A stretch of DNA of 64,000 bases from an uncultured Candidatus Saccharibacteria bacterium (GCA_964364285.1 CAYIKZ010000002.1:3800-67799); one strand, 5' to 3'; positions 6,179-53,557 are shown, counted from the first letter of the stretch. Notes: generated by a model not told the origin, from the letters alone. Numbers and translations are program-made.

Positions 6179-6254
6179 ATCGCTATTATATAGTATATTT
6201 TTTAGCTGTGTCCTAGCAGTATTCCCATGGGTCTCTTCCTCAGGAGGACCAAGC

Positions 6255-6752
6255 ATGCCAAACAGCAATGGGGCTGAGACTCTGGTTCGAGTGACTGAGA
6301 AGTATAATAGTCTTCTCGAAACTCTCGATCGGGAGATCAACAGCGCCCGACAGCTGGATGGTTTCAGGCTCTACTCGATGTACACCGGGCAGATGGAGTT
6401 CGTTGTCAGAGAGGTGGGAGTGCTTCGGTCATACCACACTGACGACGATAAGATTGTCCGTTATTGGTGGGCGATCAAGCAGCTTACCACGCTTTTGCAC
6501 AAGCTGGAGGCTGCTCAGCTCAAATTCTTGAAGGACCGGGCGCATATTTTGCCGCAGAAGTTTTTCCGTTTCCGGCGTCGCGTTCTGCAAGACTCTGGAC
6601 ACTCGCATCTGATACAGCTGACAAAGGAGTGCGCACACTGGGTGCACATCTTCGCCCGTGCTGCGAACAGCCCCAATGCAACAGTGTATAGGCTCCGACC
6701 GCAGCTGGTTGGAATCCTGACACGGATGCAAGATATACAAACCAGACTTTAG
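6255..6752 (+). CDS. Hypothetical protein encoded in GC-rich island 1
   Basis: 166 aa from an ATG preceded by GGAGG. GC-rich codon usage unlike its neighbours. No recognised domain. Confidence 0.5.
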   Translation: MPNSNGAETLVRVTEKYNSLLETLDREINSARQLDGFRLYSMYTGQMEFVVREVGVLRSYHTDDDKIVRYWWAIKQLTTLLHKLEAAQLKFLKDRAHILPQKFFRFRRRVLQDSGHSHLIQLTKECAHWVHIFARAANSPNATVYRLRPQLVGILTRMQDIQTRL

Positions 6753-6819
6753 AATAGGAGGAAATAACAGGAAGAGTTTTTCAGTTCACGTTGCGCGTAG
6801 TCCTCACACAGGAGAACCG

Positions 6820-7011
6820 ATGGCACGTATGAGAGCGTACTGGGATTCCGGATTTGACAACGCCGCTCGCCACAAGAAGAGCAAGGGAGAAGCCCGTCGT
6901 CGTCGGGAAGATCCCGACGCACAGGCGAAGCAAGTGGCGGCGCAGATCGCCACGCTTGCTCGCAAGAACGCGGTTGGATCCCGTTCCTCGCTGCTGCACA
7001 TCAAGCAGTGA
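6820..7011 (+). CDS. Small basic protein encoded in GC-rich island 1 (hypothetical)
   Basis: 63 aa, Arg/Lys-rich, AGGAG 5 nt upstream of the ATG. Confidence 0.35.
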   Translation: MARMRAYWDSGFDNAARHKKSKGEARRRREDPDAQAKQVAAQIATLARKNAVGSRSSLLHIKQ

Positions 7012-7139
7012 GCTTCCTGAACACAACAGCCACCACCTTGGGTAACACCAAGATGGTGGCTGGTTCATTCCTCATGGCTCCTTGACCGGAGCTTGACATC
7101 GGGTGTATACTTTTTCTTACTTTGTTTGTAATAAAAGGT

Positions 7140-9965
7140 ATGATAAAGATACGAGGTGCAAAACAGCATAATTTGAAGAATATTAACTTGGATTTACCAA
7201 GTAATAAGCTTATCGTAATGACAGGACTTTCCGGCTCAGGGAAGTCTTCTTTAGCGTTTGATACCATCTATGCGGAAGGACAGCGTAGATATGTTGAGTC
7301 GCTTTCAGCGTATGCAAGACAGTTTTTGGGGTTAATGGATAAACCTGATGTTGAAAGCATTGAAGGTCTTTCTCCAGCAATTTCAATAGATCAGAAAAGC
7401 GCATCACATAATCCTCGTTCAACAGTTGGAACTGTTACTGAAATATATGACTATCTCCGTTTACTCTATGCAAGAGTAGGTGTGCCACACTGTCCTGTTT
7501 GTGGAAAGAAAATCTCCGGACAAACAGTTAGCCAAATGATCGATCAACTTTCAAACCTCCCTCATGGATCAAAGATAATCCTGATGGCTCCGTTCATCAA
7601 AGATCAAAAAGGAGAACACAAACATGTTTTAGAGGAAGCAAAAAAAGCAGGGTATGCCAGAGTCAGAGTCGATAGTATAGTTATGGATTTAGATGAGGCT
7701 TTAAGATTAAACTTAGATAAAAAGAAGAAACACTCAATTGAAGTTGTAATTGATCGTATTACCATAGACAAGGATGAGCGTGGAAGACTTGCTGATTCTT
7801 TAGAAACAGCCTTGGAGTTAGGTGATGAAACAGCCATTGTTCAGTTAGCAGACAATTCTAGTAAAGAAATTTTACTTTCTCAGAAATTTGCATGTCCAGA
7901 AGGGCACATGAGCATGCCAGAGTTAGCACCAAGAAACTTTTCTTTCAATTCACCACACGGTGCTTGTCCTGAATGTACAGGTTTAGGAACAAAATTAGAA
8001 ATTGTTCCAGAACTAGTCATACCAAATCCAAAACTTACCTTAGCAGAGGGAGCAATTCGTCCTTGGAGCAAAACTACATCTCGTATTTCATGGTATACAA
8101 GGATTCTACAAGCAGTTGCTGATGAGTTTGGTTTTTCAATGGATGTTCCAATTTCAAAACTTCCTAAATCAGCGGTTGATATAATTCTGCATGGAACTGG
8201 AGAAAAAAAGATCTCAGTAGAACATGGGGAAGATGATTTTGAATATGATTACAACACCACATTTGAAGGTGTAATTCCAAACCTTGAACGTAGATACAGA
8301 GAAACTGATTCTGATTACATGCGCAGAGAAATTGAAAACTACATGCGTATTACTGAATGTCCTGTTTGTTTTGGAAAGAGATTAAAACCAGAGGCTCTTG
8401 CTGTGACAGTTGTAGACAAGGGAATTGTTGATGTTTCAAAAATGAGCATTGATGATGCTGAACTTTTCTTTAGAGACTTAAACAAAAAACTTTCAGAGAA
8501 AGACAAAAAGATTGCATATCAAATATTAAAAGAAATTAGCGCAAGACTTTCTTTCCTCAAAGATGTTGGTCTAAACTATTTAACACTTGATAGAAGCGCA
8601 GACACTCTTTCCGGAGGAGAAGCACAACGTATTCGCTTAGCAACACAGATTGGTTCTGGTTTAACAGGTGTTTTGTATATCTTAGATGAACCATCAATTG
8701 GTTTACACCAAAGAGACAATGACCGTTTACTAAAAACCCTTAAAGGATTAAGAGATTTAGGAAACACAGTCATTGTTGTTGAACATGATCAAGATACCAT
8801 TGAGTCATCTGATTGGGTTGTTGATATTGGACCAGGCGCAGGTAAGCATGGTGGAGAAATCATTGCAGAAGGAACACCAGCACAAATAAAGAAGAACAAG
8901 AATTCAATAACAGGGCAATATCTTTCTGGTGTTGAGAAAATAGAGGTGCCAAAAAGAAGACATCCTGGAAACGGTAAGAAACTAAGCATCATAGGAGCAG
9001 AAGAGCATAATTTAAAAAATATTAATGTTGATCTTCCTCTTGGTAAATTTGTTGTTTTAACTGGTGTTTCAGGTTCAGGTAAATCAACCTTGCTTAATGA
9101 AATTCTTGCAAAAGCTCTTTCAAACTATTTCTACAACTCAAAAGAAGCAGTTGGTAAACACAAGAAACTTCAAGGTGTTGAACACATCGACAAGGTAATA
9201 AACATAGATCAATCACCAATCGGAAGAACACCAAGATCAAACCCTGCGACATACACAGGCGTTTTCACATATATTAGAGATCTCTTTGCTGCAACTCCAG
9301 AAGCAAAAATGCGAGGTTACAAAGCTGGTAGATTCTCCTTCAATGTTAAAGGAGGTAGATGTGAGGTTTGTGGTGGTGACGGAGTTATTAAAATTGAGAT
9401 GCATTTCTTAGCTGATGTCTATGTTGCTTGTGAAGAATGTAAAGGTAAGAGATACAACAGAGAAGCTTTAGAAATACATTACAAAGAAAAAAATATCTCT
9501 GATGTTTTAGAGATGACAGTTGATGAAGCAAAGACTTTCTTCAAACATATCCCATTAATCTACAAGAAACTAGAAACACTTTCAGAAGTAGGTCTTGGTT
9601 ACATGCACCTTGGTCAGCAAGCAACAACTCTTTCTGGTGGAGAAGCACAGCGTATAAAATTGTCTGCAGAACTTTCCCGTGCATCAACAGGGAGAACACT
9701 CTACATCTTGGATGAACCAACAACAGGATTGCACTTTGCCGATGTTAAACGACTCCTTTCAGTTTTAAACAAACTTGTTGAAAAAGGAAACACAGTCGTT
9801 GTCATTGAACACAACCTTGATGTCATAAAAAGCGCGGATTGGGTTATTGACCTAGGTCCTGAAGGCGGGGACAAGGGCGGAGAATTAATAGCCGCCGGAA
9901 CCCCTGAAGATGTGTCGAAGATAAAGAGAAGTTACACAGGACAATATCTAAAAAAGATGCTTTAA
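7140..9965 (+). CDS. uvrA: Excinuclease ABC subunit A (UvrA)
   Basis: Two ABC ATPase modules with zinc fingers and the conserved N-terminus [17 protein letters not shown] 7140 with AAAGG is preferred over the TTG at 7122. Confidence 0.95.
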
Positions 9966-9966
9966 C

Positions 9967-9992
9967 AAAAGACCCTTAAGAAGGGTCTTTTT
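9967..9992 (+). terminator. Rho-independent terminator after uvrA
   Basis: Stem agaccctt / aagggtct with loop aag, followed by TTTTT. Confidence 0.6.
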
Positions 9993-10017
9993 AGCACTTG
10001 ACATGTTAGACTGCTAA
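9991..10017 (+). promoter_or_regulatory. CIRCE operator (HrcA binding site) with an embedded TTGACA -35
   Basis: TTAGCACTT-N9-GACTGCTAA against consensus TTAGCACTC-N9-GAGTGCTAA. Confidence 0.7.
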
Positions 10018-18083: not shown

Positions 18084-18539
18084 TTGAAATATAACAGGGA
18101 AGAACAAGTAAAGGTTTTTTTTGAAGAAATGGCCAAGCTACAAAGGCTCATGTTTTCTAAGAAAGATTCTTTTTTAACAAAGTACAAACTTAGCCGTCCG
18201 CAGATGGTTGTTATGTATTTCATTTCAGAAGGTGGATCTAAAACCATCAAAGACATTGCTGAGATAATGAACATATCAAGCAGTGCTGCAACGCAGATGA
18301 TAGAAGGACTAGTTAGAAATGGTTTCCTTGAAAGAGTCGTTCATCCAACAGATAGAAGGTCAGTACAGATTAGTATGTCTAAAATAGGGAAAAAGACATT
18401 TGATCAATTCAAGATTCAACACTTAAGACAAATGCAAAATCTTTTGGTGTCTTTAAGTGATGCAGAAATTGAACTCCTGTTAAAGATCCCTGCAAAGATT
18501 TTAAAACAATTAGAAAACTTAAAAGTAAGAAATAATTAA
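18084..18539 (+). CDS. MarR-family transcriptional regulator
   Basis: 151 aa with a winged-HTH MarR-like core. The start may be the ATG at 18129. Confidence 0.75.
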   Translation: MKYNREEQVKVFFEEMAKLQRLMFSKKDSFLTKYKLSRPQMVVMYFISEGGSKTIKDIAEIMNISSSAATQMIEGLVRNGFLERVVHPTDRRSVQISMSKIGKKTFDQFKIQHLRQMQNLLVSLSDAEIELLLKIPAKILKQLENLKVRNN

Positions 18540-18548
18540 GAGAAAGAA

Positions 18549-20099
18549 ATGAAAGAATTCATCAAAAGAAGAAAGTACTGGATTATTGGTGGAGTAATCT
18601 TGCTTTCGCTAATCATTTGGCGTGCAAATTCAGGTAATGGTCCTAAATACACCGTAGCTTACACAGTTGCTAAACAAGACATTAAACAAACCGTCTTAGC
18701 AACTGGAACCATAACTTCTCAATCAAACTTAAACTTAAGTTTTAAAAACGGCGGTATATTAAGTAAGATAAACGTTAAAGTTGGAGACAAAGTTAGAAAA
18801 GGTCAGGTGCTAGCGATGCTTGATCAGCGTGATGCAAGCGCATCATTAAACCAAGCAAGGGCATCTGTGCTTTCAGCACAAGCAAACTATCAGAAAGTTA
18901 AAAGTGGTGCTTCTCAACCAGAAATTGCAGTTGCGCAAGCTTCTGTTGTTGCTGCTGAAGTAACTTACAAAAATGCCCAGAATACATACACTGCAACTGA
19001 ATCTCAACAGAAAAGTCTGGTTGCTTCTGCACAAGGAGCAATGCTTAACTCTGGATTGCAAGCAGTTGTTGAAAGCGGTTCAACAACAATTACAGGAACA
19101 GTTTCAGGAACATACACAGGAACAGAACAAGGTAGATACAGAGTAGTTATGGGTACAAGCGGATCAGGATTAACATACAATGTTTCAGGCTTAGAAGGAT
19201 ACTACGCTGAGTTTCAACGTGGTGTCCCAGCTAAAATAGGGAACAGAGGGTTGTATATAACCATCGGGACAAGTGGGACTTTAAACAGTGGCGATTCTTG
19301 GGTTATTGATGTTCCTAACACTCAATCTTCTACATACATCACAGCATCTAATTCATACCAGAGCGCTTTGCAAACTCAGAATCAAGCCTTAGTTACTGCT
19401 CAAAATGCTGTTGATTCAACACGCGTTGCTTTAACACAAGCTCAAGCAAACCTAAATCTAAAACAGTCTCTAGCAAGACCAGAGGATTTGGCTGCTGCTG
19501 ATGCGCAAGTTAAAACAGCACAAGCACAATTACAAGCAGCTCAGAATCAATACAGTAATAATATAATCACATCTCCAATAGATGGAACAGTAACTTCTGT
19601 TGATTTAAAGCTAGGAGAAAACGTTGCTCCGCAAAAAGCCGTTATTGTAGTCCTAGATCAGTCTTCTTTGCATGTTGAGTCTAATATATCTGAATCTTCA
19701 ATTGCGCTATTACAATCAGGTCAGAAAATAGACATGACAATGGATGCATTTGGTCCTGACAGACACTTTACAGGAGAAATTCTTTCAATAGATCCCGCAT
19801 CAACTGTTCTTTCTGGAGTCATAAACTACAGAGTAATCTCATCCATTCCACAAGATGTTGATATTAAACCAGGGATGACAGTTAACCTAGTAATACTAGT
19901 TAACGAAAAGACTCAGGTCTTAGCAGTTCCAAACAGATTAGTTAAAAGCAACTCTCATAGATACGTAACAGTCTTAGAAAATGGAAATGTTAAGGAAATA
20001 GAAGTAACAATTGGTTTAAGTGGTGATTCATATACTGAAATTACAAGTGGGTTGTCTGGTGGGGAAGAAATAGTTACTACCATAGAACCAAAGAAATAA
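18549..20099 (+). CDS. HlyD/MacA-like periplasmic adaptor (efflux membrane-fusion protein)
   Basis: 516 aa with an N-terminal TM, long coiled-coil Q/A-rich segments and biotinyl-lipoyl-like and beta-barrel regions. Confidence 0.7.
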   Translation: MKEFIKRRKYWIIGGVILLSLIIWRANSGNGPKYTVAYTVAKQDIKQTVLATGTITSQSNLNLSFKNGGILSKINVKVGDKVRKGQVLAMLDQRDASASLNQARASVLSAQANYQKVKSGASQPEIAVAQASVVAAEVTYKNAQNTYTATESQQKSLVASAQGAMLNSGLQAVVESGSTTITGTVSGTYTGTEQGRYRVVMGTSGSGLTYNVSGLEGYYAEFQRGVPAKIGNRGLYITIGTSGTLNSGDSWVIDVPNTQSSTYITASNSYQSALQTQNQALVTAQNAVDSTRVALTQAQANLNLKQSLARPEDLAAADAQVKTAQAQLQAAQNQYSNNIITSPIDGTVTSVDLKLGENVAPQKAVIVVLDQSSLHVESNISESSIALLQSGQKIDMTMDAFGPDRHFTGEILSIDPASTVLSGVINYRVISSIPQDVDIKPGMTVNLVILVNEKTQVLAVPNRLVKSNSHRYVTVLENGNVKEIEVTIGLSGDSYTEITSGLSGGEEIVTTIEPKK

Positions 20100-25761: not shown

Positions 25762-25790
25762 TTGACAAAGTAACGGTATTGTGTTAAATT
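25762..25790 (+). promoter_or_regulatory. Promoter TTGACA-17-TAAATT (extended -10 TGT) within a 7-bp inverted repeat
   Basis: -35 at 25762-25767, -10 at 25785-25790. Inverted repeat TACCGTT...AACGGTA spans the -35. Confidence 0.5.
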
Positions 25791-25954
25791 ACAGTGTTAG
25801 TTGTTCCTTTATATATATTTCATCCAGCCCCCTATTTGCGAGTAGCGAAAATAGATATGAATCCCTCCTACTATTTGTAAGTAGCTGTCAAGTAAAGGTT
25901 GGCAGCGTTTGTTGTCTTCCTTTCACTCGTAAATAGGGTATTGTATGAAATATT

Positions 25955-25979
25955 AAAGCGCTTTTGCGCTTTTTTGTTT
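25955..25979 (+). terminator. Intrinsic terminator/attenuator hairpin in the leader of the GC-rich gene
   Basis: agcgc-tttt-gcgct followed by TTTTTT. No upstream plus-strand gene for it to terminate. Confidence 0.5.
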
Positions 25980-26057
25980 TTATGGTATATTGAGTTGCTC
26001 ACTCACACACGAGAGAGAGGCGCCGTGGCTAGACACGGAAGTCGAAGGAGGATTCAC

Positions 26058-26987
26058 ATGACGCATCGCGAAGTGCACTTCCGCGTGTCTGATGAAGACA
26101 TGCGGAAGATCGATGGGGTCTGGTCGAGTCTGAGAGACAAGGCTCAAAGGGGCCGTCTCCCAATCGACAAGATCATCCGGGAGCTCCAGCGTGCCAATGA
26201 AGGTCACTTCACGGCACCGCCGCTGACATACAGCGACGAGGAGTGTTCGGATGAAGAGAAGGGGATGTACAACGGAAACCACAAGCCTGCAAGCATCTGG
26301 GAGCAGGCGCAGTTCTGGAGTCGTATTCTCCCAGATGCGGACTTCTCGTATCTTGAGAAGTTCGCCGGAGGAGACCCTGATCTGTACCAGCTCGCCGAGC
26401 AGTGGGGTGTGGTTCCGAAGCCTCAGCTGCTTCGCGCTCCCGACTACTGGGGTGCCTACCAGCACCTCGTGCACACGTACTTCAGTTTGGACGGGGACTT
26501 CCCACACATCATGATGCAGTGGAGCGGTTTCATCAACGACCACAGCGACAGGCCACGTCTGACCAGGAAGACTGCTGCGTGGCATGAACGCATCACCGAG
26601 CAGACACCGGGAGACTTCCTGGTTTTCCCGTTCCAGTTCGGTGCTTTGCACGCCGGCAGATCTAGGCGCCGTGCCCAGGTTTGCTATGAGCACAACGAGA
26701 TTGGCCTCGGTCCTTACGAGGCATTGTGCTTGCTTGCAACGCATCCGAACCGGCTCGCGCAGGGCGCTCTCGGGTTCTACTGCATCGGTGCGAAGTGTGG
26801 CTGGCACAAGCGGGATCAGCAGGTTCCGAGTTCGGCGATGTATCCTAGCTGGTTCTGTCCGCGTTTCGGGTATTCCGACGTTGATCAGATAGCATTCGTT
26901 GACTGCGGCTTGCCGACGTACCAATCGAACCGCTACATTGGTTCGATCACGGCGTTCGAGTTGCCGATCGAGGAAGTCGCTGACTGA
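26058..26987 (+). CDS. Hypothetical protein encoded in GC-rich island 2 (no recognised domain)
   Basis: 309 aa from an ATG preceded by AAGGAGGA. GC-rich. The ORF-track start at 25899 lies in AT-rich leader and is rejected. Confidence 0.55.
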   Translation: MTHREVHFRVSDEDMRKIDGVWSSLRDKAQRGRLPIDKIIRELQRANEGHFTAPPLTYSDEECSDEEKGMYNGNHKPASIWEQAQFWSRILPDADFSYLEKFAGGDPDLYQLAEQWGVVPKPQLLRAPDYWGAYQHLVHTYFSLDGDFPHIMMQWSGFINDHSDRPRLTRKTAAWHERITEQTPGDFLVFPFQFGALHAGRSRRRAQVCYEHNEIGLGPYEALCLLATHPNRLAQGALGFYCIGAKCGWHKRDQQVPSSAMYPSWFCPRFGYSDVDQIAFVDCGLPTYQSNRYIGSITAFELPIEEVAD

Positions 26988-27007
26988 TCGGATCGCGTCA
27001 TTAACAA

Positions 27008-27062
27008 AGGACCTGGGTTCTGAGGATTGAAAAATCCAAAGAATCCAGGTCCTGCAGTTTTT
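27008..27062. terminator. Long nested hairpin followed by T-run (bidirectional terminator)
   Basis: ggacctgggttc...gaatccaggtcc around an inner ggatt/aatcc stem, then gcagttttt. Confidence 0.5.
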
Positions 27063-27074
27063 AATACACGTTTT

Positions 27075-30429: not shown

Positions 30430-30506
30430 GGACGATTAGCTCAGCTGGTTAGAGCGCACCGTTCACATCGGTGAGGTCAAAGGTTCGAGTCCTTTATCGT
30501 CCACCA
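30430..30506 (+). tRNA. tRNA-Val (anticodon CAC)
   Basis: Manual fold: acceptor GGACGAT/ATCGTCC, anticodon stem CACCG/CGGTG with loop TTCACAT, T arm AAAGG-TTCGAGT-CCTTT, CCA. Confidence 0.85.
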
Positions 30507-36678: not shown

Positions 36679-36816
36679 AGAGTAGATGATCTGCGCGATG
36701 GGAGCTCGGATCGAATCTAGACGGAGGGTGCAGGGATAATTTTAAGCAACAATTCAAAACAAAGAACGCAACGGACTTCTACGCAAACCGAGGCGTTTTT
36801 TGTTTGTCCAAAGGAT

Positions 36817-36845
36817 TTGGCAAAACCCGTACCTTATGTTAATTT
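36817..36845 (+). promoter_or_regulatory. Promoter TTGGCA-17-TAATTT (extended -10) upstream of GC-rich island 3
   Basis: Same architecture as the promoters at 25762 and 52773. Confidence 0.4.
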
Positions 36846-36915
36846 TATATGTCGCGGTACATGCCGTGATACAAGTAGGTTCACAGTCTGACACGGAGGA
36901 CTCTTGGACAAACTG

Positions 36916-37620
36916 ATGTTGCTTAACCGTATGGTGTTGGCTCTTGACGATATGGAACCGGATCAGATCGGTGAGCTGATCGCTGCACTTGCTCACAATG
37001 ATCTTCTTCCATGGTCGTTCAAGGTCAACGATCGTTGGGTCGAGAGTGGAAAGCAGACGGTACCGATGTTGCGTCTTGCGGCCGGCGGTGCTCACGTCAG
37101 GGTGCTCGCAGACCTGAAGCTCAGCGACACCCCCAAGACCATGAGCGCAAGCGCGAGGCGGGTGCGCGAGGCGGGTGCAGTTGCACTCACAATCCATGCC
37201 AGCTGCGGCCTTGATTCCATCAAGGCTGCGCTTGAGCACGGTCCAGCGGAGATCATTGCTGTGACCTTGCTCACCTCGATCAATCGGATGAACTGCCTGG
37301 CGCTCTACGGGCGTGAGCCGATTGAGCAGGTCAAGATCTTTGCCAAATACGCGCTCGAGAGCGGGGTTGGCAATCTGGTCTGCTCCGGGGAAGAAGTCGC
37401 GACGCTTCACGAGATGTACCCTGGCATCGGTCTGCTGGTTCCCGGTGTTCGTATGCCGGGTAGCGACCTTCGGGGTCAGAAGCGCATCACTACGCCATGG
37501 GATGCTTTCAACAACGGTGCAACGCGCATCGTTGTCGGAAGCGAAGTCACGATGGCGAAGGACCCAGTGGCTACGTTCGAGAATCTGCTCGCGGAAACTG
37601 AGAAGCACGTGGAGTTCTGA
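36916..37620 (+). CDS. pyrF: Orotidine-5'-phosphate decarboxylase-family protein (PyrF-like), GC-rich
   Basis: LALDD near the N-terminus, K-L-S-D-T-P-K-T (OMPDC KxxDIPNT-like) and C-terminal RIVVGSEV. ATG 36916 is used; a TTG at 36904 is possible. Confidence 0.65.
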   Translation: MLLNRMVLALDDMEPDQIGELIAALAHNDLLPWSFKVNDRWVESGKQTVPMLRLAAGGAHVRVLADLKLSDTPKTMSASARRVREAGAVALTIHASCGLDSIKAALEHGPAEIIAVTLLTSINRMNCLALYGREPIEQVKIFAKYALESGVGNLVCSGEEVATLHEMYPGIGLLVPGVRMPGSDLRGQKRITTPWDAFNNGATRIVVGSEVTMAKDPVATFENLLAETEKHVEF

Positions 37621-37640
37621 CACCAACCGGAGGAGGAAGG

Positions 37641-38336
37641 ATGATAGTAACTGGGGGAAGGTGGCAGAACGAAGCTGTGACAAGCTTCCTAGACTCCCTC
37701 TGGGCCTTTGGCGCCATCATGGGCGTCGACAAGTCGCCAGAGGGCAAGGGGTTTCGGCTTGCGCTTCACGAGCGTAACCCAGATGCCCCACTCTCGCCGT
37801 TCTACTTCAACCTGCGGCGGGTCCAGTCGCACCCGGCGACCCTGTACATGGCAGCACAGATGATGAGGGAGAAGATCATCGAGGATATTGATGGTGGTGC
37901 TTTCCAACTCATCGCCGGCATTCCAACTGCCGGTACACCGTTTTCGACAGCCTTGTCCCTGCTGATGCATCGCGGACAGGTGTCGCCGCGGATGCAGGCG
38001 AAGGGGCACGGGGTTGGTGATCTCGTGGATGGTGACTTCCATGACGGGCAGACCGTTCTGTTGGTCGACGATCTGATCACCGAGGCTGATTCCAAGCTTC
38101 GTGCGATCGACATCCTGCAGCGCGCCGGTCTCATCGTTCAGAATATCGCCGTCCTGATCGACCGGGAACAGGGCGGCAGACAGCGGCTTGAGGCTGCTGG
38201 GTACAAGGTTCACCCCGTCTTCACGGTCACTGAAGTCTTCTCCTACTACCTGGCTGCTGGTGAATCCACCCAGTCCGCCTACGACCAGATCGTGGAGTAC
38301 CTCGACCGCGAAGCCGAGAAGCACGCGAACCAGTAA
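37641..38336 (+). CDS. pyrE: Orotate phosphoribosyltransferase (PyrE-like), GC-rich
   Basis: PRPP-binding motif VLLVDDLITEADS and DREQGG. N-terminal PyrE-like flexible loop. Strong RBS GGAGGAGGAAGG. Confidence 0.75.
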   Translation: MIVTGGRWQNEAVTSFLDSLWAFGAIMGVDKSPEGKGFRLALHERNPDAPLSPFYFNLRRVQSHPATLYMAAQMMREKIIEDIDGGAFQLIAGIPTAGTPFSTALSLLMHRGQVSPRMQAKGHGVGDLVDGDFHDGQTVLLVDDLITEADSKLRAIDILQRAGLIVQNIAVLIDREQGGRQRLEAAGYKVHPVFTVTEVFSYYLAAGESTQSAYDQIVEYLDREAEKHANQ

Positions 38337-38509
38337 CAAACAATCGACAAGAGGAAAAACCGTCCCTGGAGGAGGACGGATGAAAGAAACAGGCTATGGC
38401 TCTGGTGCAGATTTTGTACCAGAGCCTGCTGTTTTTTAGTGATTGTGGATAAACTTGATTTAGTTGTTTAAAAAGGTTGAAATTATTGGATTTTTGATAT
38501 ATTTGCCTA

Positions 38510-39149: not shown

Positions 39150-42100
39150 ATGAGTGAAAACTTACAAATCAGAACCAAGAACGCACTATCCGAACTCGGA
39201 GAAAAAATCTTTCTAGATCGTTATGCAGTTAAAGATGCTAAAAAAGAAACATTGGCAGTAGGAGATACTGTTGTCATCAATGTTAATTTAAAAACAGGAC
39301 AGAGAGAAATTGGAACAGTTAAGGAAGTTGATAGGTTTAGCAAACAAGTAGAAGTAACCTTGCGCGATGGCACAGTAGAGAAACGCGCAATAGAGCATGT
39401 AGACAAACCTTTGGAAACAGTTCCTGAACAAATGTTTGAGCGCATAGCTCGTCATATTGCAAGCGTTGAGAAAACTCCAGAAAAACAAAATGAATGGCAG
39501 GGGAAATTTAGAGAACTAATGGATGACTGGAAATATGTTCCAGCAGGAAGAATCTTTACTGGTGCAGGAACCGGTCAAAACCTAACTTTTTACAACTGCT
39601 ATGTCATACCATGTCCTCAGGATTCTCGTGGTGGTATTTTTGACACACTCAGACAAATGGCAGAAATCATGTCCCGAGGGGGCGGTGTTGGTATAAACGT
39701 ATCTACGTTGAGACCAAGATACGCATATGTTAAAGGTGTTAATGGAAGATCCTCTGGTTCTGTTTCCTGGGCTTCTTTGTATAGCTTTGTTACAGGTTTA
39801 ATTGAACAGGGTGGTTGTTTTGGACCGAATGAAAGAATTGCAACCAATGTTGGTTTGGTTCCTGCAAAAGAATTGGCTGACCGTGTTGAAGCAGGTGAAG
39901 CAATATACGCCCAAACCCATAAAGGTATGCGCCGAATAACAGCTAAATTCAGAAATGGCGTGAAAGAACTTTATGAAGTAACAACTGAGCGTGGATTTAG
40001 CACCGAGATAACAGCAGATCATAAGGTTGCAGTACTATTAAACGGCCGAGTTGAAACAACTGCTTTAAAAAATTTGAAGCAAGGAGACGACATCTTGTTG
40101 TTGCTTGGCAATGCTACTGGTCAAAATTATGTGTCGCTTAAGAAAAGTGATTACAAGCGTTCTGTAATGAGTACGACCTTAAATACTGATGTTCGTCTTC
40201 CTGAAATGCTCAATGAAGATTTGGCATACCTTGTTGGATATATGTTGGGTGATGGATATGTGAGTTGGGGTAAAAAAGTAAATTGGTCTGCTCCTAAAGC
40301 TGTTAAAATGGCAACCGCCGATGCATACCCTGAAATTCGTCAGAGAATTGTTGATGCGATCCAAAATCTTTTTGGTGTTGATGCAGTAATTGAAAAAGGC
40401 GACGGTGCTTGCCAAAACGTTTCTTTGTATTCTCGCATTGTAATTGAGTGGCTCTTAGAAAATGGTTTACTCAAATCTAAAGCAAAAGATATTCGTGTGC
40501 CAGAAAGCATTTTTCGCTCACCGACCAGCGTGACTGGGTCATTCATAGCCGGGTATTTTGACGCTGACGGTTGCAACCGTGGAGCAAAGGGTGGTTATGG
40601 TATTGACAGCATAAGTCGTGAAATGCTCACAGACGTGCAACAGCTTTTAGCTGCAAACGGTGTCTTGTCTGCTATTCGTGCAACTGATCGAACAGAACAA
40701 GGTTGGCAAACAATCTATCGTTTAAGTGTTACTGGAAATCAATTTAAAGAGCGTTTTGCGGATTTGGTTTCTACTGCCAAGCGTTCTGACTTCAATGGCA
40801 AGCGCGATATGTTTAATACTTACCCGTCAGAAATTTTAGCTGCTGTCGGTGTGCGTAGCAAGGACCGTCAGGGAATCTATGATGGCACATCTCCGCAGGT
40901 TTCTTTTAATCAACTTGTACACATCCAAAAACGTTTGAATACTGTCGAACAATATTCTGCCGCCCAATATCTTGATGACATCATGCACACCATTCCTGAC
41001 ACGATTACCGCAATCAAATCGGTTGGTAAAAGCGATGTTTATGACTTTGAGGTTGAAGATGTCCATTTGCTCAGCGGTGGTGGTGTTTACACTTCAAACA
41101 GCAGAAGAGGCGCTTTAATGCTCATTCTAAACGTTTGGCATCCTGATATTGTTGATTTCATTAATGCAAAGAGAGAAGCTGGAAAAATAACTAACGCGAA
41201 TATTTCTGTTGGTATTACTGATGATTTTATGGAAGCAGTTAAAAATGATGCTGACTGGGATTTGGTTTTCCCAGACACATCAGATCCTTTGTATCAATCA
41301 GAGTGGGCTGAGACACAAGGTGATATTAAAGCATGGCAAAAACTTGGTGGTAAAGTCGTTGTTCATAAAACAATGAAAGCAAAAGAAATCTGGGATCAAA
41401 TCATTTCCTCAGCATGGTCTTCAGCAGAACCTGGTGTTTACTTCATTGATCGCGCAAACTATCTTTCAAATTCTTACTACTACGCAGCATTGCCTTGTAC
41501 CAATCCTTGTGGTGAACAACCACTTCCTGCTTGGGGTGTTTGTAACCTAGGACATGTTAATCTTGCAAAACATCTTACAAACAATGAAGTTGATTGGCAG
41601 AAATTAAAAGAAACAGTAAGATACGCAGTTCGTTTCCAGGACAATGTCATAGATGCAACACCATACTTCTTTGATGAGAACTTTAAACAACAAATGTCTG
41701 AAAGAAGAGTTGGTATGGGAACAATCGGACTCGCAGAAATGTTAATTAAATTAAGAATTAGATATGGCAGTGATCAAGCAATTCAATTCATCGACAAACT
41801 ATATCAATTCATTGCAGTTACATCTTACGAAACATCAGTAGAAATCGCTCGTGAAAAAGGATCTTTCCCTCAATTTGATGCTGAAAAATTCTTAGAAAGC
41901 GGATACATGAAAGCAATGCCTGAATATATTCGTTCATTAGTAAGACAATACGGTGTAAGAAACGTAACAATAATGACTCAGGCACCAACTGGAACAATCG
42001 GAACAATGGTTGGAACATCAACAGGAATTGAACCATTCTTCTCATGGACATACTTTAGAAAGAGCAGACTTGGTGTTCATGAAGAAAAGATTAAACTAGC

Positions 42101-43106
42101 TCAAGACTGGTTGGATCAAAATCCAGGACAAGAACTTCCAGAATACTTTGTTACTGCAATGAGCCTTGCTCCTGAAGACCACGTTAGAGTTCAGGCAGCA
42201 GTTCAACGTTGGACAGACTCAGCAATTTCAAAGACCTGTAATGCCCCTTCAAACTACACTGTAGAAGACACTAAAAAGCTATACCAGATGATGTATGACC
42301 TTGGTTGCAAAGGTGGAACCATTTACCGTGATGGTTCAAGAGATGAACAAATCTTAGCAACAGATGCAAAGAACCTTGGTAAAGATGTTCAGGAACAACT
42401 AGAGGCAAAAGCAAAGATTGAAACACAAGTAACTCAAATTGTTCAAGAAGGACAAGATCTCTTACAAATTGGTGACCACAAGTTCTTGGTTAAAAAACTC
42501 ATTCAAAACGGAACTAAATTTGAAGTTGTACCAAGGGAACGTCCAATTGAGATGCAAGGAACAACATACAAATTAAATACGCCGTATGGTTCGCTCTTTG
42601 TAACCATAAACGAAGATGAGCATGGACCATTTGAAGTCTTTGCACAGCTTGGTAAAGCTGGTGGTTTTTTCGCAGCTCAATCAGAAGCTCTATGCAGAAT
42701 GATTTCCTTAAGTTTAAGATCAGGCGTTGCTGTAGAGGAAATAATCAAACAGTTGAAGGGAATTAGAAGTACTGAGGTTGCATTTAACCAAGGCGAGATA
42801 ATTTATTCATTGCCTGATGGTATTGCAAAGACCATGGAAAAGCACATCAATCGCAAACAGCAAAGCTTACAACTCCAATTCAAACAAGCAGAACCAGCAA
42901 AACTCGATTTAAAAGAAGAAGTCAAAATGACAGTTTCAGAAGGACCGGTAGAAGTAAGTTCTGTTGCGGAGTTTCAGCCTAAACAACAAAAGGTTTCAAT
43001 GGCAGACTATGGTCATGCGCCGGTTTGTCCAGATTGTTCTTCAATGCTTGTTATGGCAGAGGGATGTATGAAATGTGATGTCTGCGGATATTCTAAGTGC
43101 GGTTAA
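39150..43106 (+). CDS. nrdJ: Ribonucleotide reductase, adenosylcobalamin-dependent (class II-like), containing an intein
   Basis: RNR catalytic motifs (NPCGE, C-terminal CxxC...CxxC tail). nrdR is upstream and a cobalamin adenosyltransferase gene downstream. 1318 aa including the intein. Confidence 0.85.
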   Translation: MSENLQIRTKNALSELGEKIFLDRYAVKDAKKETLAVGDTVVINVNLKTGQREIGTVKEVDRFSKQVEVTLRDGTVEKRAIEHVDKPLETVPEQMFERIARHIASVEKTPEKQNEWQGKFRELMDDWKYVPAGRIFTGAGTGQNLTFYNCYVIPCPQDSRGGIFDTLRQMAEIMSRGGGVGINVSTLRPRYAYVKGVNGRSSGSVSWASLYSFVTGLIEQGGCFGPNERIATNVGLVPAKELADRVEAGEAIYAQTHKGMRRITAKFRNGVKELYEVTTERGFSTEITADHKVAVLLNGRVETTALKNLKQGDDILLLLGNATGQNYVSLKKSDYKRSVMSTTLNTDVRLPEMLNEDLAYLVGYMLGDGYVSWGKKVNWSAPKAVKMATADAYPEIRQRIVDAIQNLFGVDAVIEKGDGACQNVSLYSRIVIEWLLENGLLKSKAKDIRVPESIFRSPTSVTGSFIAGYFDADGCNRGAKGGYGIDSISREMLTDVQQLLAANGVLSAIRATDRTEQGWQTIYRLSVTGNQFKERFADLVSTAKRSDFNGKRDMFNTYPSEILAAVGVRSKDRQGIYDGTSPQVSFNQLVHIQKRLNTVEQYSAAQYLDDIMHTIPDTITAIKSVGKSDVYDFEVEDVHLLSGGGVYTSNSRRGALMLILNVWHPDIVDFINAKREAGKITNANISVGITDDFMEAVKNDADWDLVFPDTSDPLYQSEWAETQGDIKAWQKLGGKVVVHKTMKAKEIWDQIISSAWSSAEPGVYFIDRANYLSNSYYYAALPCTNPCGEQPLPAWGVCNLGHVNLAKHLTNNEVDWQKLKETVRYAVRFQDNVIDATPYFFDENFKQQMSERRVGMGTIGLAEMLIKLRIRYGSDQAIQFIDKLYQFIAVTSYETSVEIAREKGSFPQFDAEKFLESGYMKAMPEYIRSLVRQYGVRNVTIMTQAPTGTIGTMVGTSTGIEPFFSWTYFRKSRLGVHEEKIKLAQDWLDQNPGQELPEYFVTAMSLAPEDHVRVQAAVQRWTDSAISKTCNAPSNYTVEDTKKLYQMMYDLGCKGGTIYRDGSRDEQILATDAKNLGKDVQEQLEAKAKIETQVTQIVQEGQDLLQIGDHKFLVKKLIQNGTKFEVVPRERPIEMQGTTYKLNTPYGSLFVTINEDEHGPFEVFAQLGKAGGFFAAQSEALCRMISLSLRSGVAVEEIIKQLKGIRSTEVAFNQGEIIYSLPDGIAKTMEKHINRKQQSLQLQFKQAEPAKLDLKEEVKMTVSEGPVEVSSVAEFQPKQQKVSMADYGHAPVCPDCSSMLVMAEGCMKCDVCGYSKCG
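39816..41099 (+). mobile_element. Intein with a LAGLIDADG homing-endonuclease domain inside nrdJ
   Basis: Begins with Cys after ...EQGG. Two LAGLIDADG motifs (LAYLVGYMLGDGYV, FIAGYFDADGC). Block G VYDFEVEDVHLL...VYTSN, followed by the extein SRRGALM. Confidence 0.75.
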
Positions 43107-50369: not shown

Positions 50370-50506
50370 ATATTTCCATCCCCCCTAATTATATGCCACA
50401 ACTACCATAACCAGAAACAAGTTGTCAAAGGTAAAAAATTTAAGTCCCAAGACTTAATCCATTAATTTGATATACTGCTTAAAGAAGCCTTAAACAAGGA
50501 GCATCT

Positions 50507-50857: not shown

Positions 50858-50859
50858 AG

Positions 50860-51711
50860 ATGCTAGCTGAACAAATATTAAAAACCATAAAATATTTCGA
50901 TGTTCAAAACCACCCTTTGACGCTTTTAGAGATACATAAATATTTGCTTGCAGACAAAGGAATAAAAGCAACAATTTCAGAAATACTAACAATCCTAGAA
51001 ACAGATCTTAAAGACAAAATTCAAACTTCAAATGGTTTCTATTATTTAACAGGCCGTAGTGAAATTTCAGAACAAAGATTAAAAAACAACATCTTTGCAA
51101 CCAAACGGTTAAAAAGAACAAAAAAATATCTTTCAAAAATTAAATACATACCATTCATAAAAGGTCTTGCTGTTGGTGGTTCTGAAGCAATCACCAACTC
51201 AAGAGAGACAAGCGACATTGATATCTTTGTTTTAACTAAACCAAATAGGATTTGGTTGGCAAGACTTTTCCTAAGCGCATACTTTCAAATATTTGGAGTC
51301 AGAAGACATGGCAAAAAAACAGCCAACCGTTTTTGTTTAAACCACTACATTGAACAAGGGAAACTACTTAACAGAGAACAGCATATATATTCAGCAGTAG
51401 AATATATATCTTTAATTCCATACTTTGGAGGAGAAGAAATCTATGAGTTTCAAACGGCAAATCTAACTTGGATTAGAGAATACTTAGCTCAACCACAGAT
51501 TGTCAGATACACAACACCAAAAGCAGCGAAGATAACAGAGATATTTGAAAAGATGCTACAGAATAAACTCGGAGACTTTTTAGAAGAAATATCAGGTAAA
51601 TTTCAGACAAAAAAAATACACCTTCAGGATAGTATAGTGTTAGAAAAAGACGAGCTTGTTTTCCACCCAGGAAATAAGGGGAGACAAGTCATGAGTAAAT
51701 TTAACCCTTAA
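50860..51711 (+). CDS. Nucleotidyltransferase-fold protein (pol-beta superfamily, putative)
   Basis: GGSEAITNSRETSDIDIF matches GS...DxD. ATG 50860 immediately follows the upstream stop. Confidence 0.5.
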   Translation: MLAEQILKTIKYFDVQNHPLTLLEIHKYLLADKGIKATISEILTILETDLKDKIQTSNGFYYLTGRSEISEQRLKNNIFATKRLKRTKKYLSKIKYIPFIKGLAVGGSEAITNSRETSDIDIFVLTKPNRIWLARLFLSAYFQIFGVRRHGKKTANRFCLNHYIEQGKLLNREQHIYSAVEYISLIPYFGGEEIYEFQTANLTWIREYLAQPQIVRYTTPKAAKITEIFEKMLQNKLGDFLEEISGKFQTKKIHLQDSIVLEKDELVFHPGNKGRQVMSKFNP

Positions 51712-51720
51712 ACGAACCGA

Positions 51721-51757
51721 GGCCCCGCAGACAAAAATAGTCTGGGGGCCTCACGAG
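51721..51757. terminator. Long GC hairpin
   Basis: gaggccccgcagac-aaaaata-gtctgggggcctc. Confidence 0.45.
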
Positions 51758-51760
51758 GGT

Positions 51761-51931
51761 TCACGGCTTCGTCGTGTCGATGACAGCCGCGGGCGGCGTC
51801 TGGGCGGCCGCTCTCGGCTTCGGGGTCTGGTTGACGAAGAAGTAGCCGGCTACAAGCGCGCAGACGATGATGACGAACGCGATCGTCCATGTGCTTGGTC
51901 CGGTGTCCACCGTGGCACGCTTGCCGAACAT
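51761..51931 (-). CDS. Small single-TM protein encoded in GC-rich island 4 (hypothetical)
   Basis: 56 aa from an ATG after GGAGGG, with one hydrophobic helix and a Pro/Ala-rich tail. GC-rich. Confidence 0.3.
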   Translation of the reverse strand: MFGKRATVDTGPSTWTIAFVIIVCALVAGYFFVNQTPKPRAAAQTPPAAVIDTTKP

Positions 51932-52036
51932 AGTCCCTCCTGCGATCCCTCGCAGGTTGAAGTGGTGCTGCGTGATACTGCGTGGGGTTTCATTGCATAT
52001 TGCCACATCTGTTTTAAAAAATCAAGCGCAACAAAA

Positions 52037-52066
52037 CACCCTAAAGAATGCTCTTTAGGGTGTTTA
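52037..52066. terminator. Terminator after the NERD gene
   Basis: aacaccctaaag-aatgct-ctttagggtgtt. Confidence 0.55.
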
Positions 52067-52078
52067 AATTAGATGTAT

Positions 52079-52732
52079 TTAAACTTTCTTTATGACCTCT
52101 GCGATATATCCTGGTTCTGTAATGGAATGCGTATAGCTATTCAGTATTAAACTTACTAATTCATCCTTATGTACAAAAGAAACATCATCAGAAACATGAT
52201 TAACACCACCATCGCGCATATTCGGCATAACAAGGATCGCATTAACCCAAATTTTTTTTCTGCAGTACGCATCAATGAAATGCTTTAACTTCATTGCACC
52301 ACGATGTGATTGATTTAAAAAAGCATGCATTTGTCCCTGGTTTGGGTGATAGTGGCTTTTGACTTCAATCGCAAAAATTCCAGTTGGACCAATAACAGCA
52401 AAATCAATATCACCGCCGTGTCTTAAAGAGAGGTCTTGGAAAACATAAAAGTCATGTGGTAGGCGAAGAAGTTCTTTTTTGATGCTTTCTTCACCCCAGA
52501 TTCCTCTTGAAAATCTATGAGATCTTTTTTCAAAAAGTTTAGCCAAGCTGTAACCGAGAGGGATTAATAGAACAATCAAAAGCATCCAATCAGAAAGAGA
52601 AGAGTAGGTATCAACATCACGCTGGGTTAAATAACTCAAAAACAAGAACAGTCCTAAGGTTATGACAAACAGAAGAATAAAAAGAGACTCTTTTCTTTGC
52701 AGGAAACTGCTTTTTTTAATGTATATAGCCAT
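52079..52732 (-). CDS. NERD (nuclease-related domain) protein, membrane-anchored
   Basis: N-terminal TM helices plus a NERD-like core ...DFYVFQDLSLRHGGDIDFAVIGPTGIFAIEVKS.... Confidence 0.65.
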   Translation of the reverse strand: MAIYIKKSSFLQRKESLFILLFVITLGLFLFLSYLTQRDVDTYSSLSDWMLLIVLLIPLGYSLAKLFEKRSHRFSRGIWGEESIKKELLRLPHDFYVFQDLSLRHGGDIDFAVIGPTGIFAIEVKSHYHPNQGQMHAFLNQSHRGAMKLKHFIDAYCRKKIWVNAILVMPNMRDGGVNHVSDDVSFVHKDELVSLILNSYTHSITEPGYIAEVIKKV

Positions 52733-52772
52733 TACTGTTTTATTCTAGCACTTTTGGATCCTCTGTGGAGGG

Positions 52773-52801
52773 TTGACATGGTAAGTCCTTGGTGTTAATA
52801 T
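52773..52801 (+). promoter_or_regulatory. Promoter TTGACA-17-TAATAT (extended -10) upstream of GC-rich island 5
   Basis: -35 at 52773-52778, -10 at 52796-52801. Confidence 0.45.
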
Positions 52802-52947
52802 GCTTTTTCTACAGTATTCTCCTGCAGCCGCTCGCGTGAGCGAAGCGGAAGCAACACAAGCCCAGAGGGCGAGTGGCTGTAGGAAACCCTTTCGTTCTGG
52901 CACAAGGGTCCAGATACGAAGGACAACTCGTTCGGAGGAACCATCTG

Positions 52948-53163
52948 ATGACCACCACGAGCACCGGCCGACTGCGGACCCGCAAGCCCCAGGCGAGCAT
53001 TTTTCCCACCATCATGGACATCCTGGACGCGGTGAAGCACGACGACGGCAGCGGGCAGCAGGGCATCGACAAGGCGCCGGCCACGCAGTCCGACGGCAGC
53101 GGGCAGCAGGGCATCGACAAGGCGCCGGCCACGCAGTCCGACGGCAGCGGCACCGCGCAGTAG
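52948..53163 (+). CDS. Small tandem-repeat protein encoded in GC-rich island 5 (hypothetical)
   Basis: 71 aa from an ATG after GGAGGA. Contains two copies of DGSGQQGIDKAPATQS. Confidence 0.4.
   Translation: MTTTSTGRLRTRKPQASIFPTIMDILDAVKHDDGSGQQGIDKAPATQSDGSGQQGIDKAPATQSDGSGTAQ
53044..53151 (+). repeat. 48-bp direct tandem repeat, 2.25 copies
   Basis: gacggcagcgggcagcagggcatcgacaaggcgccggccacgcagtcc repeated exactly. Confidence 0.9.
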
Positions 53164-53193
53164 CAAGGCGGCGCCGGGTCACCAGGGAAGCTC

Positions 53194-53237
53194 GCCCCGA
53201 GGCGCTCGGGGCGGGCAACCCCAGGTTTTCCTGGGGA
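53194..53237 (+). terminator. Two consecutive GC hairpins (terminator)
   Basis: gccccgag-gcg-ctcggggc, then ccccagg-tttt-cctgggg. Confidence 0.5.
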
Positions 53238-53557
53238 GCAAGCGAAGAAGCAGCAACCGCATTGGTTGACTGCTTTTTTCGTCCCTTTCTTAGGTCCTTG
53301 ACAAACTAGCAATATTTAGTTAATATTCCCAGTTAAAACAAAATATTAGTTATGGCTCCTGATTTCGTGCATACGGATTGGGGGCAACCCAAAAGGCTTG
53401 TGTAAGAGCATTTATTTATGAGGCTCTATGGCACGAGTCTTTTTGTTTTGTATATTTAATACTTTGTTAATGAATTTTTAATGTTTTTTGCGTATTAATA
53501 GTAGGAAGGTTAAAAAGGAATATTAGTTTAGATCTAGTCTGTGTTTTCAGGAGCGCG

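Follow-up and report, generated by a model that had tools for sequence, protein, structure and literature searches.

Introduction

Genes or gene blocks that stand apart from their surroundings have been described in several settings. The morons of phages are reportedly autonomous promoter–open reading frame (ORF)–terminator cassettes lodged between conserved genes, as is said to emerge from lambdoid phage comparisons of the Juhala and Hendrix type, while acquired genes, in the amelioration model attributed to Lawrence and Ochman, are said to approach the composition of their host over time, at a pace set by synonymous substitution. In replacement-type flexible genomic islands, of which the O-antigen and capsule loci are examples, allelic cassettes occupy a fixed locus. 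Finally, genome-scale ordered RNA structure (GORS) is a property of some RNA viruses, and islands of structured RNA rich in guanine and cytosine (GC) are known in AT-rich hyperthermophiles. Here, we describe five short GC-rich islands located in the intergenic spacers of a 64,000-nt stretch of DNA (hereafter, the window) assigned to an uncultured Candidatus Saccharibacteria bacterium (GCA_964364285.1 CAYIKZ010000002.1:3800-67799). In related genomes, these islands are found at the same sites with the same composition, and they appear to be old residents rather than recent imports. In the literature that we searched, we did not come across any account of such a pattern.

Composition and Architecture of the Islands

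The background GC content of the window is low (median 0.38; standard deviation estimated from the median absolute deviation, MAD-sd, 0.044), and a 300-nt sliding profile rises above it in five sharp peaks. These peaks correspond to island 1 (~6200-7065; 49–53% GC in 300-nt windows, with local peaks of 66%), island 2 (~25995-27057; 57–59%), island 3 (~36850-38435; 57–59%), island 4 (~51712-51975; 53% in a 300-nt window, but 64% for its ORF) and island 5 (~52803-53281; 57–62%, locally 78%). The five islands thus have 53–64% GC in a 37% GC genome and, in a profile with a resolution of 50 nt, the switch at their edges is complete in ~25–50 nt. GC is raised at all codon positions (GC1, GC2 and GC3), with GC3 values of 0.63–0.94 vs. 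0.26–0.31 in nine flanking genes, and it is raised in the untranslated regions (UTRs) too, which makes it a property of the whole unit. At the protein level, the content in Gly, Ala, Arg and Pro (GARP) amounts to 29% vs. 22%. The islands are real and statistically unambiguous, and the sequence-only reading that first pointed to five GC-rich islands in intergenic spacers is borne out by both the sliding GC and the codon-position GC; its estimate of about 60% GC stands as an order of size, except that island 1 is at 53–54%.

All islands follow a common layout, i.e., a promoter, a GC-rich 5′ UTR, a Shine-Dalgarno (SD) sequence of the GGAGG type, one or two ORFs and a hairpin. There are seven ORFs in total, two in island 1 (I1a and I1b), two in island 3 (pyrF and a pyrE-like gene) and one in each of the others, that of island 4 being on the minus strand; their sizes (Table 1) agree with those given earlier, but for the first one, which has 165 aa instead of 166. 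By direct reading, most ORFs have the GGAGG or GGAGGA site announced for all of them, but I1b only has GGAGA, and the SD of pyrF lies 15 nt from its ATG. Concerning the three promoters that had been proposed at 25762, 36817 and 52773, the last one is confirmed by a promoter scan, the second can be read in the sequence but falls below the threshold of the scanner, and the first does exist but probably drives another transcript (see below). The genes on either side (uvrC/uvrA, topA/pth, ftsZ+hyp138/nrdR and NERD/rpmF) are intact, as had been claimed, and orthologous in sister genomes. Likewise, the description of the islands as promoter-equipped units of foreign-type composition with an atypical amelioration holds. 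As for the idea of a dispersed multi-gene module, it is in line with the shared composition, architecture and excess of predicted RNA folding, but island-vs.-island comparison found no sequence, repeats or ends common to several islands, so that a module cannot be shown.

Distribution in Sister Genomes

A housekeeping gene located between islands 2 and 3 places the genome of the window in Patescibacteria/Candidatus Doudnabacteria. Sister metagenome-assembled genomes (MAGs) were found in unrelated studies: H41-bin257_1 (~98% nucleotide identity), Gr01-1014_77 (91%), and WY4.bin85 and clean1170 (~81%). More sister loci (designated below by L-numbers) were recovered through island and flank proteins, the nucleotide identity ranging from 76 to 98% over independent assemblies. 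A GC-rich segment of matching size is found in each sister locus that covers an island site, and neither an empty site nor a spacer devoid of insert, as envisaged by the sequence-only reading, was found among them. Thus, island 1 is present in L074, island 2 in L006–L009, L064 and L065, and island 3 in L009, L070 and L071 (only its start in L064), while the NERD gene of L154–L158 is flanked by islands 4 and 5, one on each side. Taken gene by gene, island orthologues have 57–59% GC in all sisters and their neighbours 34–43%. Among the 124 loci scanned, comparable islands are nearly confined to this clade, apart from one Parcubacteria locus with an island 2 homologue, and the composition scan found none in ~80 other contigs, mostly from the Candidate Phyla Radiation (CPR).

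Syntenic homologues of the same GC content in low-GC relatives are what the sequence-only reading had itself named as evidence against a recent import. The sites and the GC are the same in all sisters and, within an allele class, divergence keeps pace with that of the flanks, so that there is no support for a recent import from a high-GC partner; neither do the best matches of the island proteins lead to a high-GC phylum, the closest ones being from other Doudnabacteria or CPR. Furthermore, the island 2 protein and its pth neighbour are 100% identical over 1.5–4 kb in five independent Logan assemblies (separate sequencing runs), which excludes a chimeric assembly across the island 2 junctions; as islands also recur in MAGs of unrelated studies, chimerism, which had been raised as a possible artefact, is ruled out.

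Several MAG contigs break at island edges: L006 ends there (at the equivalent of window position 36734), L070 starts inside pyrF and L064 starts 285 nt before the island 2 ORF. Such breaks suggest that assemblies are fragmented by strain-level allele heterogeneity or by the shift in composition, which could mislead binning.

Vertical Inheritance and Allele Replacement

Within an allele class, islands diverge at about the same pace as their flanks. In the island 2 class I2B, the number of synonymous substitutions per site (dS) is 0.78–1.53, vs. 0.36–1.58 for the flanks in the same genome pairs, while between L070 and L071 dS is 0.94 for pyrF and 1.85 for the pyrE-like gene, vs. 0.61–1.51 for the flanks. 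Within-class ratios of nonsynonymous to synonymous substitutions (dN/dS) are 0.09–0.17. Because dS is like that of the flanks and dN/dS is low, the island genes are functional and have shared a chromosome with these neighbours over roughly one synonymous substitution per site. These comparisons show a vertical inheritance along with the housekeeping neighbours from the common ancestor of the clade, under purifying selection.

Between classes, the picture is different. At the topA/pth site, the island 2 protein of the window is only ~25% identical to its GC-rich orthologue in L006–L009 (307–310 aa), the latter proteins being ~80% identical to each other. The L009 flanks are 97–100% identical to the window, with an identity falling from 100% to 86% towards the island; the recombination footprint extends ~1.5 kb into these flanks, which stay at 35–38% GC. 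The class of the window recurs at 89% identity in L064, another Doudnabacteria MAG. Regarding island 3, which is 100% identical between the window and L009, the pyrF of these two genomes is 51–56% identical to the pyrF of other Doudnabacteria, which form a tight group; in other sisters, pyrF is 53–56% and the pyrE-like gene 74–77% identical, and the two genes have a GC of 0.57–0.59. Finally, I1a is a mosaic with respect to L074, with 97% identity over the first ~100 nt and 63–70% in the interior, the range being 92–97% for these first ~100 nt and the whole of I1b. Taken together, these patterns show that an allele-class swap by homologous recombination through conserved flanks or UTRs, took place at island 2, pyrF and I1a.

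Compositional Stasis

Island GC3 stays at 0.66–0.75 in every lineage despite a dS of ~0.8–1.9. By comparison, a two-state relaxation model with a GC3 equilibrium of 0.27, as for the flanks, and the fraction of changes seen between strong (S: G or C) and weak (W: A or T) bases predicts, at a flank dS of 0.9–1.5, a GC3 of 0.37–0.45 when starting from 0.70 and of 0.43–0.57 when starting from 1.00. Similarly, polarised third-position changes in I2B give an S>W/W>S ratio of 2.2, vs. 6.3 expected under the flank regime; this ratio is roughly the mirror of the 0.35 obtained for the flanks, a value that itself reflects majority-rule bias. Within the limits of parsimony and of the Nei–Gojobori method (NG86) used for dS, these results show islands that seem to hold a compositional equilibrium of their own rather than the fading signal of an import.

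On a related note, tRNA-Leu(CAG) (2267-2353) and tRNA-Val(CAC) (30430-30506) are kept in this AT-rich genome; they decode codons ending in G, which are frequent in the islands and scarce in other genes.

Predicted RNA Folding

For each unit, the minimum free energy (MFE) of the predicted fold was compared to that of dinucleotide shuffles (20–200 per sequence) and expressed as a z-score. All islands are predicted to fold more tightly than their shuffled versions: z is −4.3 to −5.5 for the island 1 unit, −7.4 for the island 2 unit, −5.7 for pyrF, −3.4 for the pyrE-like gene, −2.1 to −2.7 for island 4 and −3.8 to −4.0 for island 5. The mean over these six units is −4.4, vs. −0.65 over 36 controls (control minimum −3.5; Mann–Whitney p = 1.3e-4). 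The controls include AT-rich flanking genes (n = 12; z from −2.3 to +1.05), genes of a 66% GC genome, L073 (n = 4; −1.3 to +1.2), and native genes of 46–63% GC contigs (n = 20; −3.5 to +1.7), and the difference persists against GC-matched controls (Mann–Whitney p = 4.5e-4). Sister island coding sequences (CDSs), including those of other allele classes, behave in the same way (mean z −3.0; p = 0.001). In four of the six units, the sense strand is more structured than its reverse complement. When shuffling preserves both the protein and the codon usage, island 2 (−4.1) and pyrF (−4.7) are still outliers.

Gene Content of the Islands

The transcription units of the islands and their parts are listed in Table 1.

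Table 1. Positions of island units and their predicted signals and ORFs in the window.
Feature	Position	Strand	Description
Island 1 transcription unit	6165..7065	+	promoter-like sites at 6165-6199, GGAGGA SD, two ORFs, hairpin
I1a ORF	6255-6752	+	165 aa
I1b ORF	6820-7011	+	63 aa, basic
Island 1 3′ hairpin	7027-7062	+	15-bp stem
Island 2 transcription unit	25984..27063	+	likely extended −10, GC-rich 5′ UTR, AGGAGGA SD, ORF, terminator
Island 2 ORF	26058-26987	+	309 aa
Island 2 terminator	27008-27053	+	hairpin, followed by a T-run
Island 3 operon	36817..38435	+	promoter-like site, pyrF, pyrE-like gene, terminator
Island 3 promoter-like site	36817-36845	+	TTGGCA-17-TAATTT, by reading (below scanner threshold)
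pyrF	36916-37620	+	234 aa
pyrE-like gene	37641-38336	+	231 aa
Island 3 terminator	38398-38426	+	13-bp stem
Island 4 unit	51712..52025	-	promoter-like site, 5′ UTR hairpin, ORF, terminator
Island 4 promoter-like site	52025-51997	-	TTGATT-17-CAATAT, by reading
Island 4 5′ UTR hairpin	51937-51954	-	CCTGCGAGGGATCGCAGG, overlaps SD
Island 4 ORF	51931-51761	-	56 aa, one predicted transmembrane helix
Island 4 terminator	~51716-51750	-	hairpin
Island 5 unit	52773..53281	+	promoter, UTR, SD, ORF, three 3′ hairpins
Island 5 promoter	52773-52801	+	TTGACA-17-TAATAT with TG
Island 5 5′ UTR		+	structured, ~140 nt, GGAGGA SD
Island 5 ORF	52948-53163	+	71 aa, low-complexity (MTTTST..RTRKPQ...DGSGTAQ)
Island 5 3′ end	~53249-53280 (last hairpin)	+	three hairpins, the last being the terminator

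Islands 1, 4 and 5 encode small, conserved and uncharacterised proteins. In island 3, the pyrF product is, by family, a bona fide orotidine 5′-monophosphate (OMP) decarboxylase: it scores 106 bits against PF00215 (cut-off 27) and 95.9 against TIGR01740 (cut-off 92.3), even if it does not reach the cut-off of the stricter equivalog PRK00230 (132.6 vs. 193). The catalytic D-x-K-x-x-D motif (D66, K68 and D71; DLKLSD) is invariant in 13 pyrF sequences, outgroups included, and the upstream Lys (‘FKV/LKV’) can be read in the Doudnabacteria sequences. As for the pyrE-like product, it falls below the cut-offs for pyrE (TIGR00336: 84.1 vs. 106.8; PRK05500: 105 vs. 656) and exactly at the threshold of the Pfam Pribosyltran profile (26.3). 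In canonical type-I phosphoribosyltransferases (PRTs), the phosphoribosyl pyrophosphate (PRPP) loop consists of an acidic pair followed by T-x-G-x-T/S. The loop of the pyrE-like product reads VLLVDDLITEADS, in which the acidic pair and the Thr are kept and the glycines are replaced; the substrate specificity of the enzyme is therefore uncertain. Together, the two genes suggest a salvage of orotate, in which a PyrF and PyrE-like pair would make UMP from the scavenged compound; de novo synthesis of pyrimidines is expected to be absent from this organism. Downstream, the region of the ribosome-binding site and start codon of the pyrE-like gene (GGAGGAGGAaGGATGA) is repeated after its stop codon (38368-38440), where it heads a 19-codon mini-ORF running into the terminator hairpin; this repeat could be a remnant or a leader-like regulatory element.

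The island 2 protein belongs to a large uncharacterised family, for which a profile finds 1,620 representatives (281 at E<=1e-30), the named members all being from CPR lineages (Kuenen-, Uhr-, Parcu- and Doudnabacteria). Its core motif, PGDF-x-VFP-x-QFG ... E-x-x-L-x-PY ... LL-x-THP-x-R, is made of columns that are invariant in A1 and A2, and the protein has no match in Pfam, NCBIfam, PADLOC, PHROG or PDB sequences. The extended −10 (TGgTATATT) near 25984 is more likely to be its own promoter, because the one at 25762 lies ~230 nt upstream of the island with a terminator (25955-25972) in between, and thus probably serves a different, short transcript. This neighbouring element (25762-25975, plus strand) features a strong promoter-like site, TTGACA-17-TAAATT with TG, and its terminator ~190 nt further on; it aligns in all sisters, has no Rfam match and might be a small RNA (sRNA) or a small-ORF transcript.

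In island 1, dN/dS is 0.38 for I1a and 0.19 for I1b. The single-sequence AlphaFold2 (AF2) model of I1a is all-helical and of low confidence (predicted local distance difference test, pLDDT, 66), and a PDB sequence search with this protein returned noise only. The ORF and the UTR hairpin of island 4 are kept in L154, L157 and L158; this hairpin is identical in all sisters, although the identity of the ORF is down to about one half, as judged by eye. Overlapping the SD, it is a candidate translational control element. Island 5 is conserved in L154, L156, L157 and L158, its frame being kept through indels over the five genomes (window included), and its UTR hairpins feature 6 and 4 compensatory pairs. 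In the window, the ORF of island 5 contains a 48-nt tandem duplication (53030-53125), of which the copies are 88% identical and which adds 16 residues (DGSGQQGIDKAPATQS twice); it is window-specific, none of the four sister sequences having it. A non-coding element (53298-53450, plus strand) with a promoter of its own, TTGACA-17-TAATAT at 53298, and a terminator at 53420-53441 separates island 5 from rpmF; in L154 and L156–L158, it is very well conserved, even better than the coding DNA next to it. Rfam gives no match for this element, which might be an sRNA or a leader of L32.

Outside the islands, a few other differences between strains were observed. An accessory gene of ordinary GC (~1.7 kb, encoding a Glu/Lys/Ala-rich protein) is found in L009 at 18302-20016 (window 22044/22056) and is missing in the window, as is a Fic-domain gene located between ftsZ and a 130-aa gene in L071/L072 (3694-4764). 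The ribonucleotide reductase gene (39150-43106, plus strand) encodes 1318 aa in the window vs. 890–895 aa in L070 and L071, and Pfam identifies an intein splicing domain and a LAGLIDADG homing endonuclease at residues ~240–640, so that the gene carries a strain-specific intein insertion; the latter coincides with a mild GC rise at 40.5–41.1 kb. Lastly, a tandem repeat array of 21 nt (7 aa) is present at 56361-56570, inside the ORF 56265-56723.

Candidate Origins

Searches of 5.8 billion and 1.84 billion proteins returned no close homologue of the island proteins from any high-GC organism. Outside the clade, the nearest pyrF is 40% identical and lies beside pyrD in a 66% GC genome; this distant relative is the sole hint at a high-GC source. 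Homologues of island 2 look compositionally native in a Patescibacteria genome of ~46% GC and island-like in a Parcubacteria genome (GC3 0.70 vs. 0.27–0.46). An ancient source in higher-GC organisms is thus plausible. Pfam and NCBIfam scans revealed no integrase-like ORF in any island; we found no direct repeats, att-like or other, flanking the islands, and no tRNA adjoining any of them. Diversity-generating retroelements (DGRs), integrons and att-mediated cassettes are ruled out by the lack of repeats common to several islands or bordering them, and the hallmarks of a DGR target (a template/variable repeat pair differing at adenines, and a reverse transcriptase nearby) were not found. Genes for structured RNAs (rRNA, RNase P, tmRNA, large non-coding RNAs) are also rejected: at gathering scores, Rfam finds only five tRNAs in the window, and only sub-threshold, chance-level matches came out when thresholds were relaxed for islands 4 and 5 and for the stretch upstream of island 2. 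A phage origin fares no better, since scans of viral contigs are empty for island 2, the pyrE-like gene and I1a, and return only generic relatives (26–41%) for pyrF. Finally, the island proteins have no PADLOC match that would link them to defence, and PHROG only gives a weak generic PRT match.

Discussion

According to the account that we favour, and to which we give about an even chance of being right, the islands are ancient, clade-inherited, allele-swapped and GC-maintained cassettes, for which selection on mRNA structure is the best candidate force. The set of seven ORFs in five autonomous units was in place already in the ancestor of this Candidatus Doudnabacteria clade, its original source probably being higher-GC organisms. 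At some loci, recombination through flanks or UTRs has swapped one allele class for a deeply diverged one. Selection on the nucleic acid for heavily paired, and so G+C-rich, transcripts would maintain GC, a step that we derive from in-silico folding. Heavy pairing would benefit the stability of the mRNA, its resistance to RNases or the control of its translation and, as selection for pairing would demand G+C, it would explain why the composition concerns the whole transcript and ends at the promoter and the terminator. As the force maintaining GC, selection on RNA structure is best regarded as the leading but unproven candidate. In a stronger version, which is conceivable but on the whole doubtful, a small set of genes in this lineage of ultra-small CPR bacteria would form ‘armoured’ units, which selection for pairing along the whole mRNA would hold at ~58% GC, against 37% for the genome, over one synonymous substitution per site or more. 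Such armoured messages might owe to it a long life in host-free dormancy or a resistance to single-strand-specific RNases.

Several points weigh against this account. First, the dS values come from NG86, are near saturation and are sensitive to skewed composition, while the polarisation of changes relies on majority-rule parsimony, which is composition-biased, over four taxa (three for topA). Second, the folding z-scores are computational only; those of the pyrE-like gene and island 4 are inside the control range, and the pyrE-like gene and I1a become marginal under codon shuffling. Third, a specific conserved fold over the island 2 CDS is not supported by the four I2B sequences (RNAalifold covariation term of +1.06). 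There are 17 compensatory pairs in this CDS, vs. 8.3 in shuffles and 1–9 in slid versions, yet there is circularity, hence bias, in this excess, the structure having been built on those very sequences. From these models, the property looks like a generalised excess of pairing, of the GORS type, and not like a defined structure. Fourth, no empty site was found that would capture the acquisition itself. Fifth, allele classes were swapped at islands 1a, 2 and pyrF, which is also what would be expected if the genes were imported again and again.

This last possibility, namely that alleles of a GC-rich reservoir as yet unsampled (higher-GC relatives, a mobile element or a host) enter these spacers time and again through homologous recombination, with a residence too short for GC to fall, strikes us as unlikely, albeit worth keeping in mind. 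Beyond the swaps, it would account for the island 2 homologues being native-looking at ~46% GC and island-like elsewhere, for the occurrence of the nearest outside pyrF in a 66% GC genome and for the MAG contigs that break at island edges. Nevertheless, within a class, island dS tracks flank dS over four or more lineages, which implies a long co-residence, and all top matches that can be placed sit in AT-rich Doudnabacteria contexts. Moreover, no GC-rich contig with a close homologue was found, and recombination through the flanks needs Doudnabacteria donors.

GC-biased gene conversion (gBGC) at recombination hotspots under diversifying selection, in which biased mismatch repair would fix W>S changes, has less going for it still, and we consider it quite improbable. 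Recombination is seen directly at three islands, with an identity that decays in the flanks, and the substitution spectrum is indeed less S>W-biased than the flank regime predicts. However, GC shifts in 25–50 nt at the edges of transcription units, whereas the recombination footprint reaches ~1.5 kb into flanks of 35–38% GC. In addition, the window and L009 have the very same island 3 (100% identity), which in other genomes diverges along with its flanks and, to our knowledge, the gBGC effects reported in bacteria fall far short of a 40-point shift in GC3.

At face value, a foreign-type composition, visible at all codon positions and in amino-acid usage, together with a distant pyrF relative in a 66% GC genome, might call for a recent horizontal gene transfer (HGT) from a high-GC partner or host. 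This explanation is very hard to maintain, as the islands are syntenic in all sisters down to ~76% nucleotide identity, with a dS comparable to that of the flanks, and as the protein searches above found no close high-GC homologue, nor the scans any mobility genes, att-like repeats or tRNA-adjacent sites. Finally, although GC-rich islands in AT-rich genomes are a classic signature of non-coding RNA (ncRNA), and island 5 does have covarying hairpins, an artefact or a misreading (assembly chimera, contamination or structured ncRNA genes) is barely credible in view of the five independent assemblies identical across junctions, the lack of any Rfam family, the conserved ORFs (dN/dS 0.09–0.38, frame kept through indels) and the Pfam/NCBIfam matches of pyrF and the pyrE-like gene.

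Compositional islands are routinely taken as recent HGT and expected to fade, whereas those described here are old, co-inherited and static. They offer a natural case for studying what holds the composition of genes ~20 GC points (~40 in GC3) off that of their genome. If selection on RNA structure is indeed at work, mRNA folding can dominate the codon usage, and even the amino-acid usage, of whole bacterial genes, and caution would be in order when GC deviation alone is used to date or infer HGT in CPR genomes. Should the armoured version hold, a second compositional equilibrium would persist in one bacterial chromosome, driven by selection at the RNA level. From a practical viewpoint, the coincidence of islands with MAG contig breaks and allele swaps makes them matter for binning and strain resolution, and the uncharacterised family of island 2, with its ~1,600 representatives, is brought to notice.

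Comparison with Known Systems

The islands resemble the systems outlined in the introduction in part only. As in phage morons, they have one or two ORFs with their own sigma-70-like promoter and hairpin terminator (both predicted), an odd composition and intact neighbours. Unlike morons, they are found in a cellular chromosome, amid uvrA/C, topA, pth, ftsZ, nrdR and rpmF, and not in a prophage; they are fixed and syntenic across the clade, GC-richer than the host and non-ameliorating, and no viral relatives were found for them beyond generic pyrF. With GORS and the RNA islands of hyperthermophiles, they share a transcript-wide excess of predicted folding without a strongly conserved fold, visible as GC peaks, but they are DNA-encoded bacterial mRNAs for ordinary proteins, with no Rfam match and a structure that is predicted only. 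Compared to acquired genomic islets, they show neither decay to host composition, nor mobility genes or flanking repeats, nor a patchy distribution among close relatives, even though both are atypical in base composition at every codon position, encode accessory functions and probably come, ultimately, from a foreign source. Finally, although they consist of single small GC-rich genes rather than long AT-rich glycosylation clusters, with functions that are not obviously surface-exposed, they have in common with replacement-type islands deeply diverged homologous alleles at one locus in close relatives, with breakpoints in the conserved flanks.

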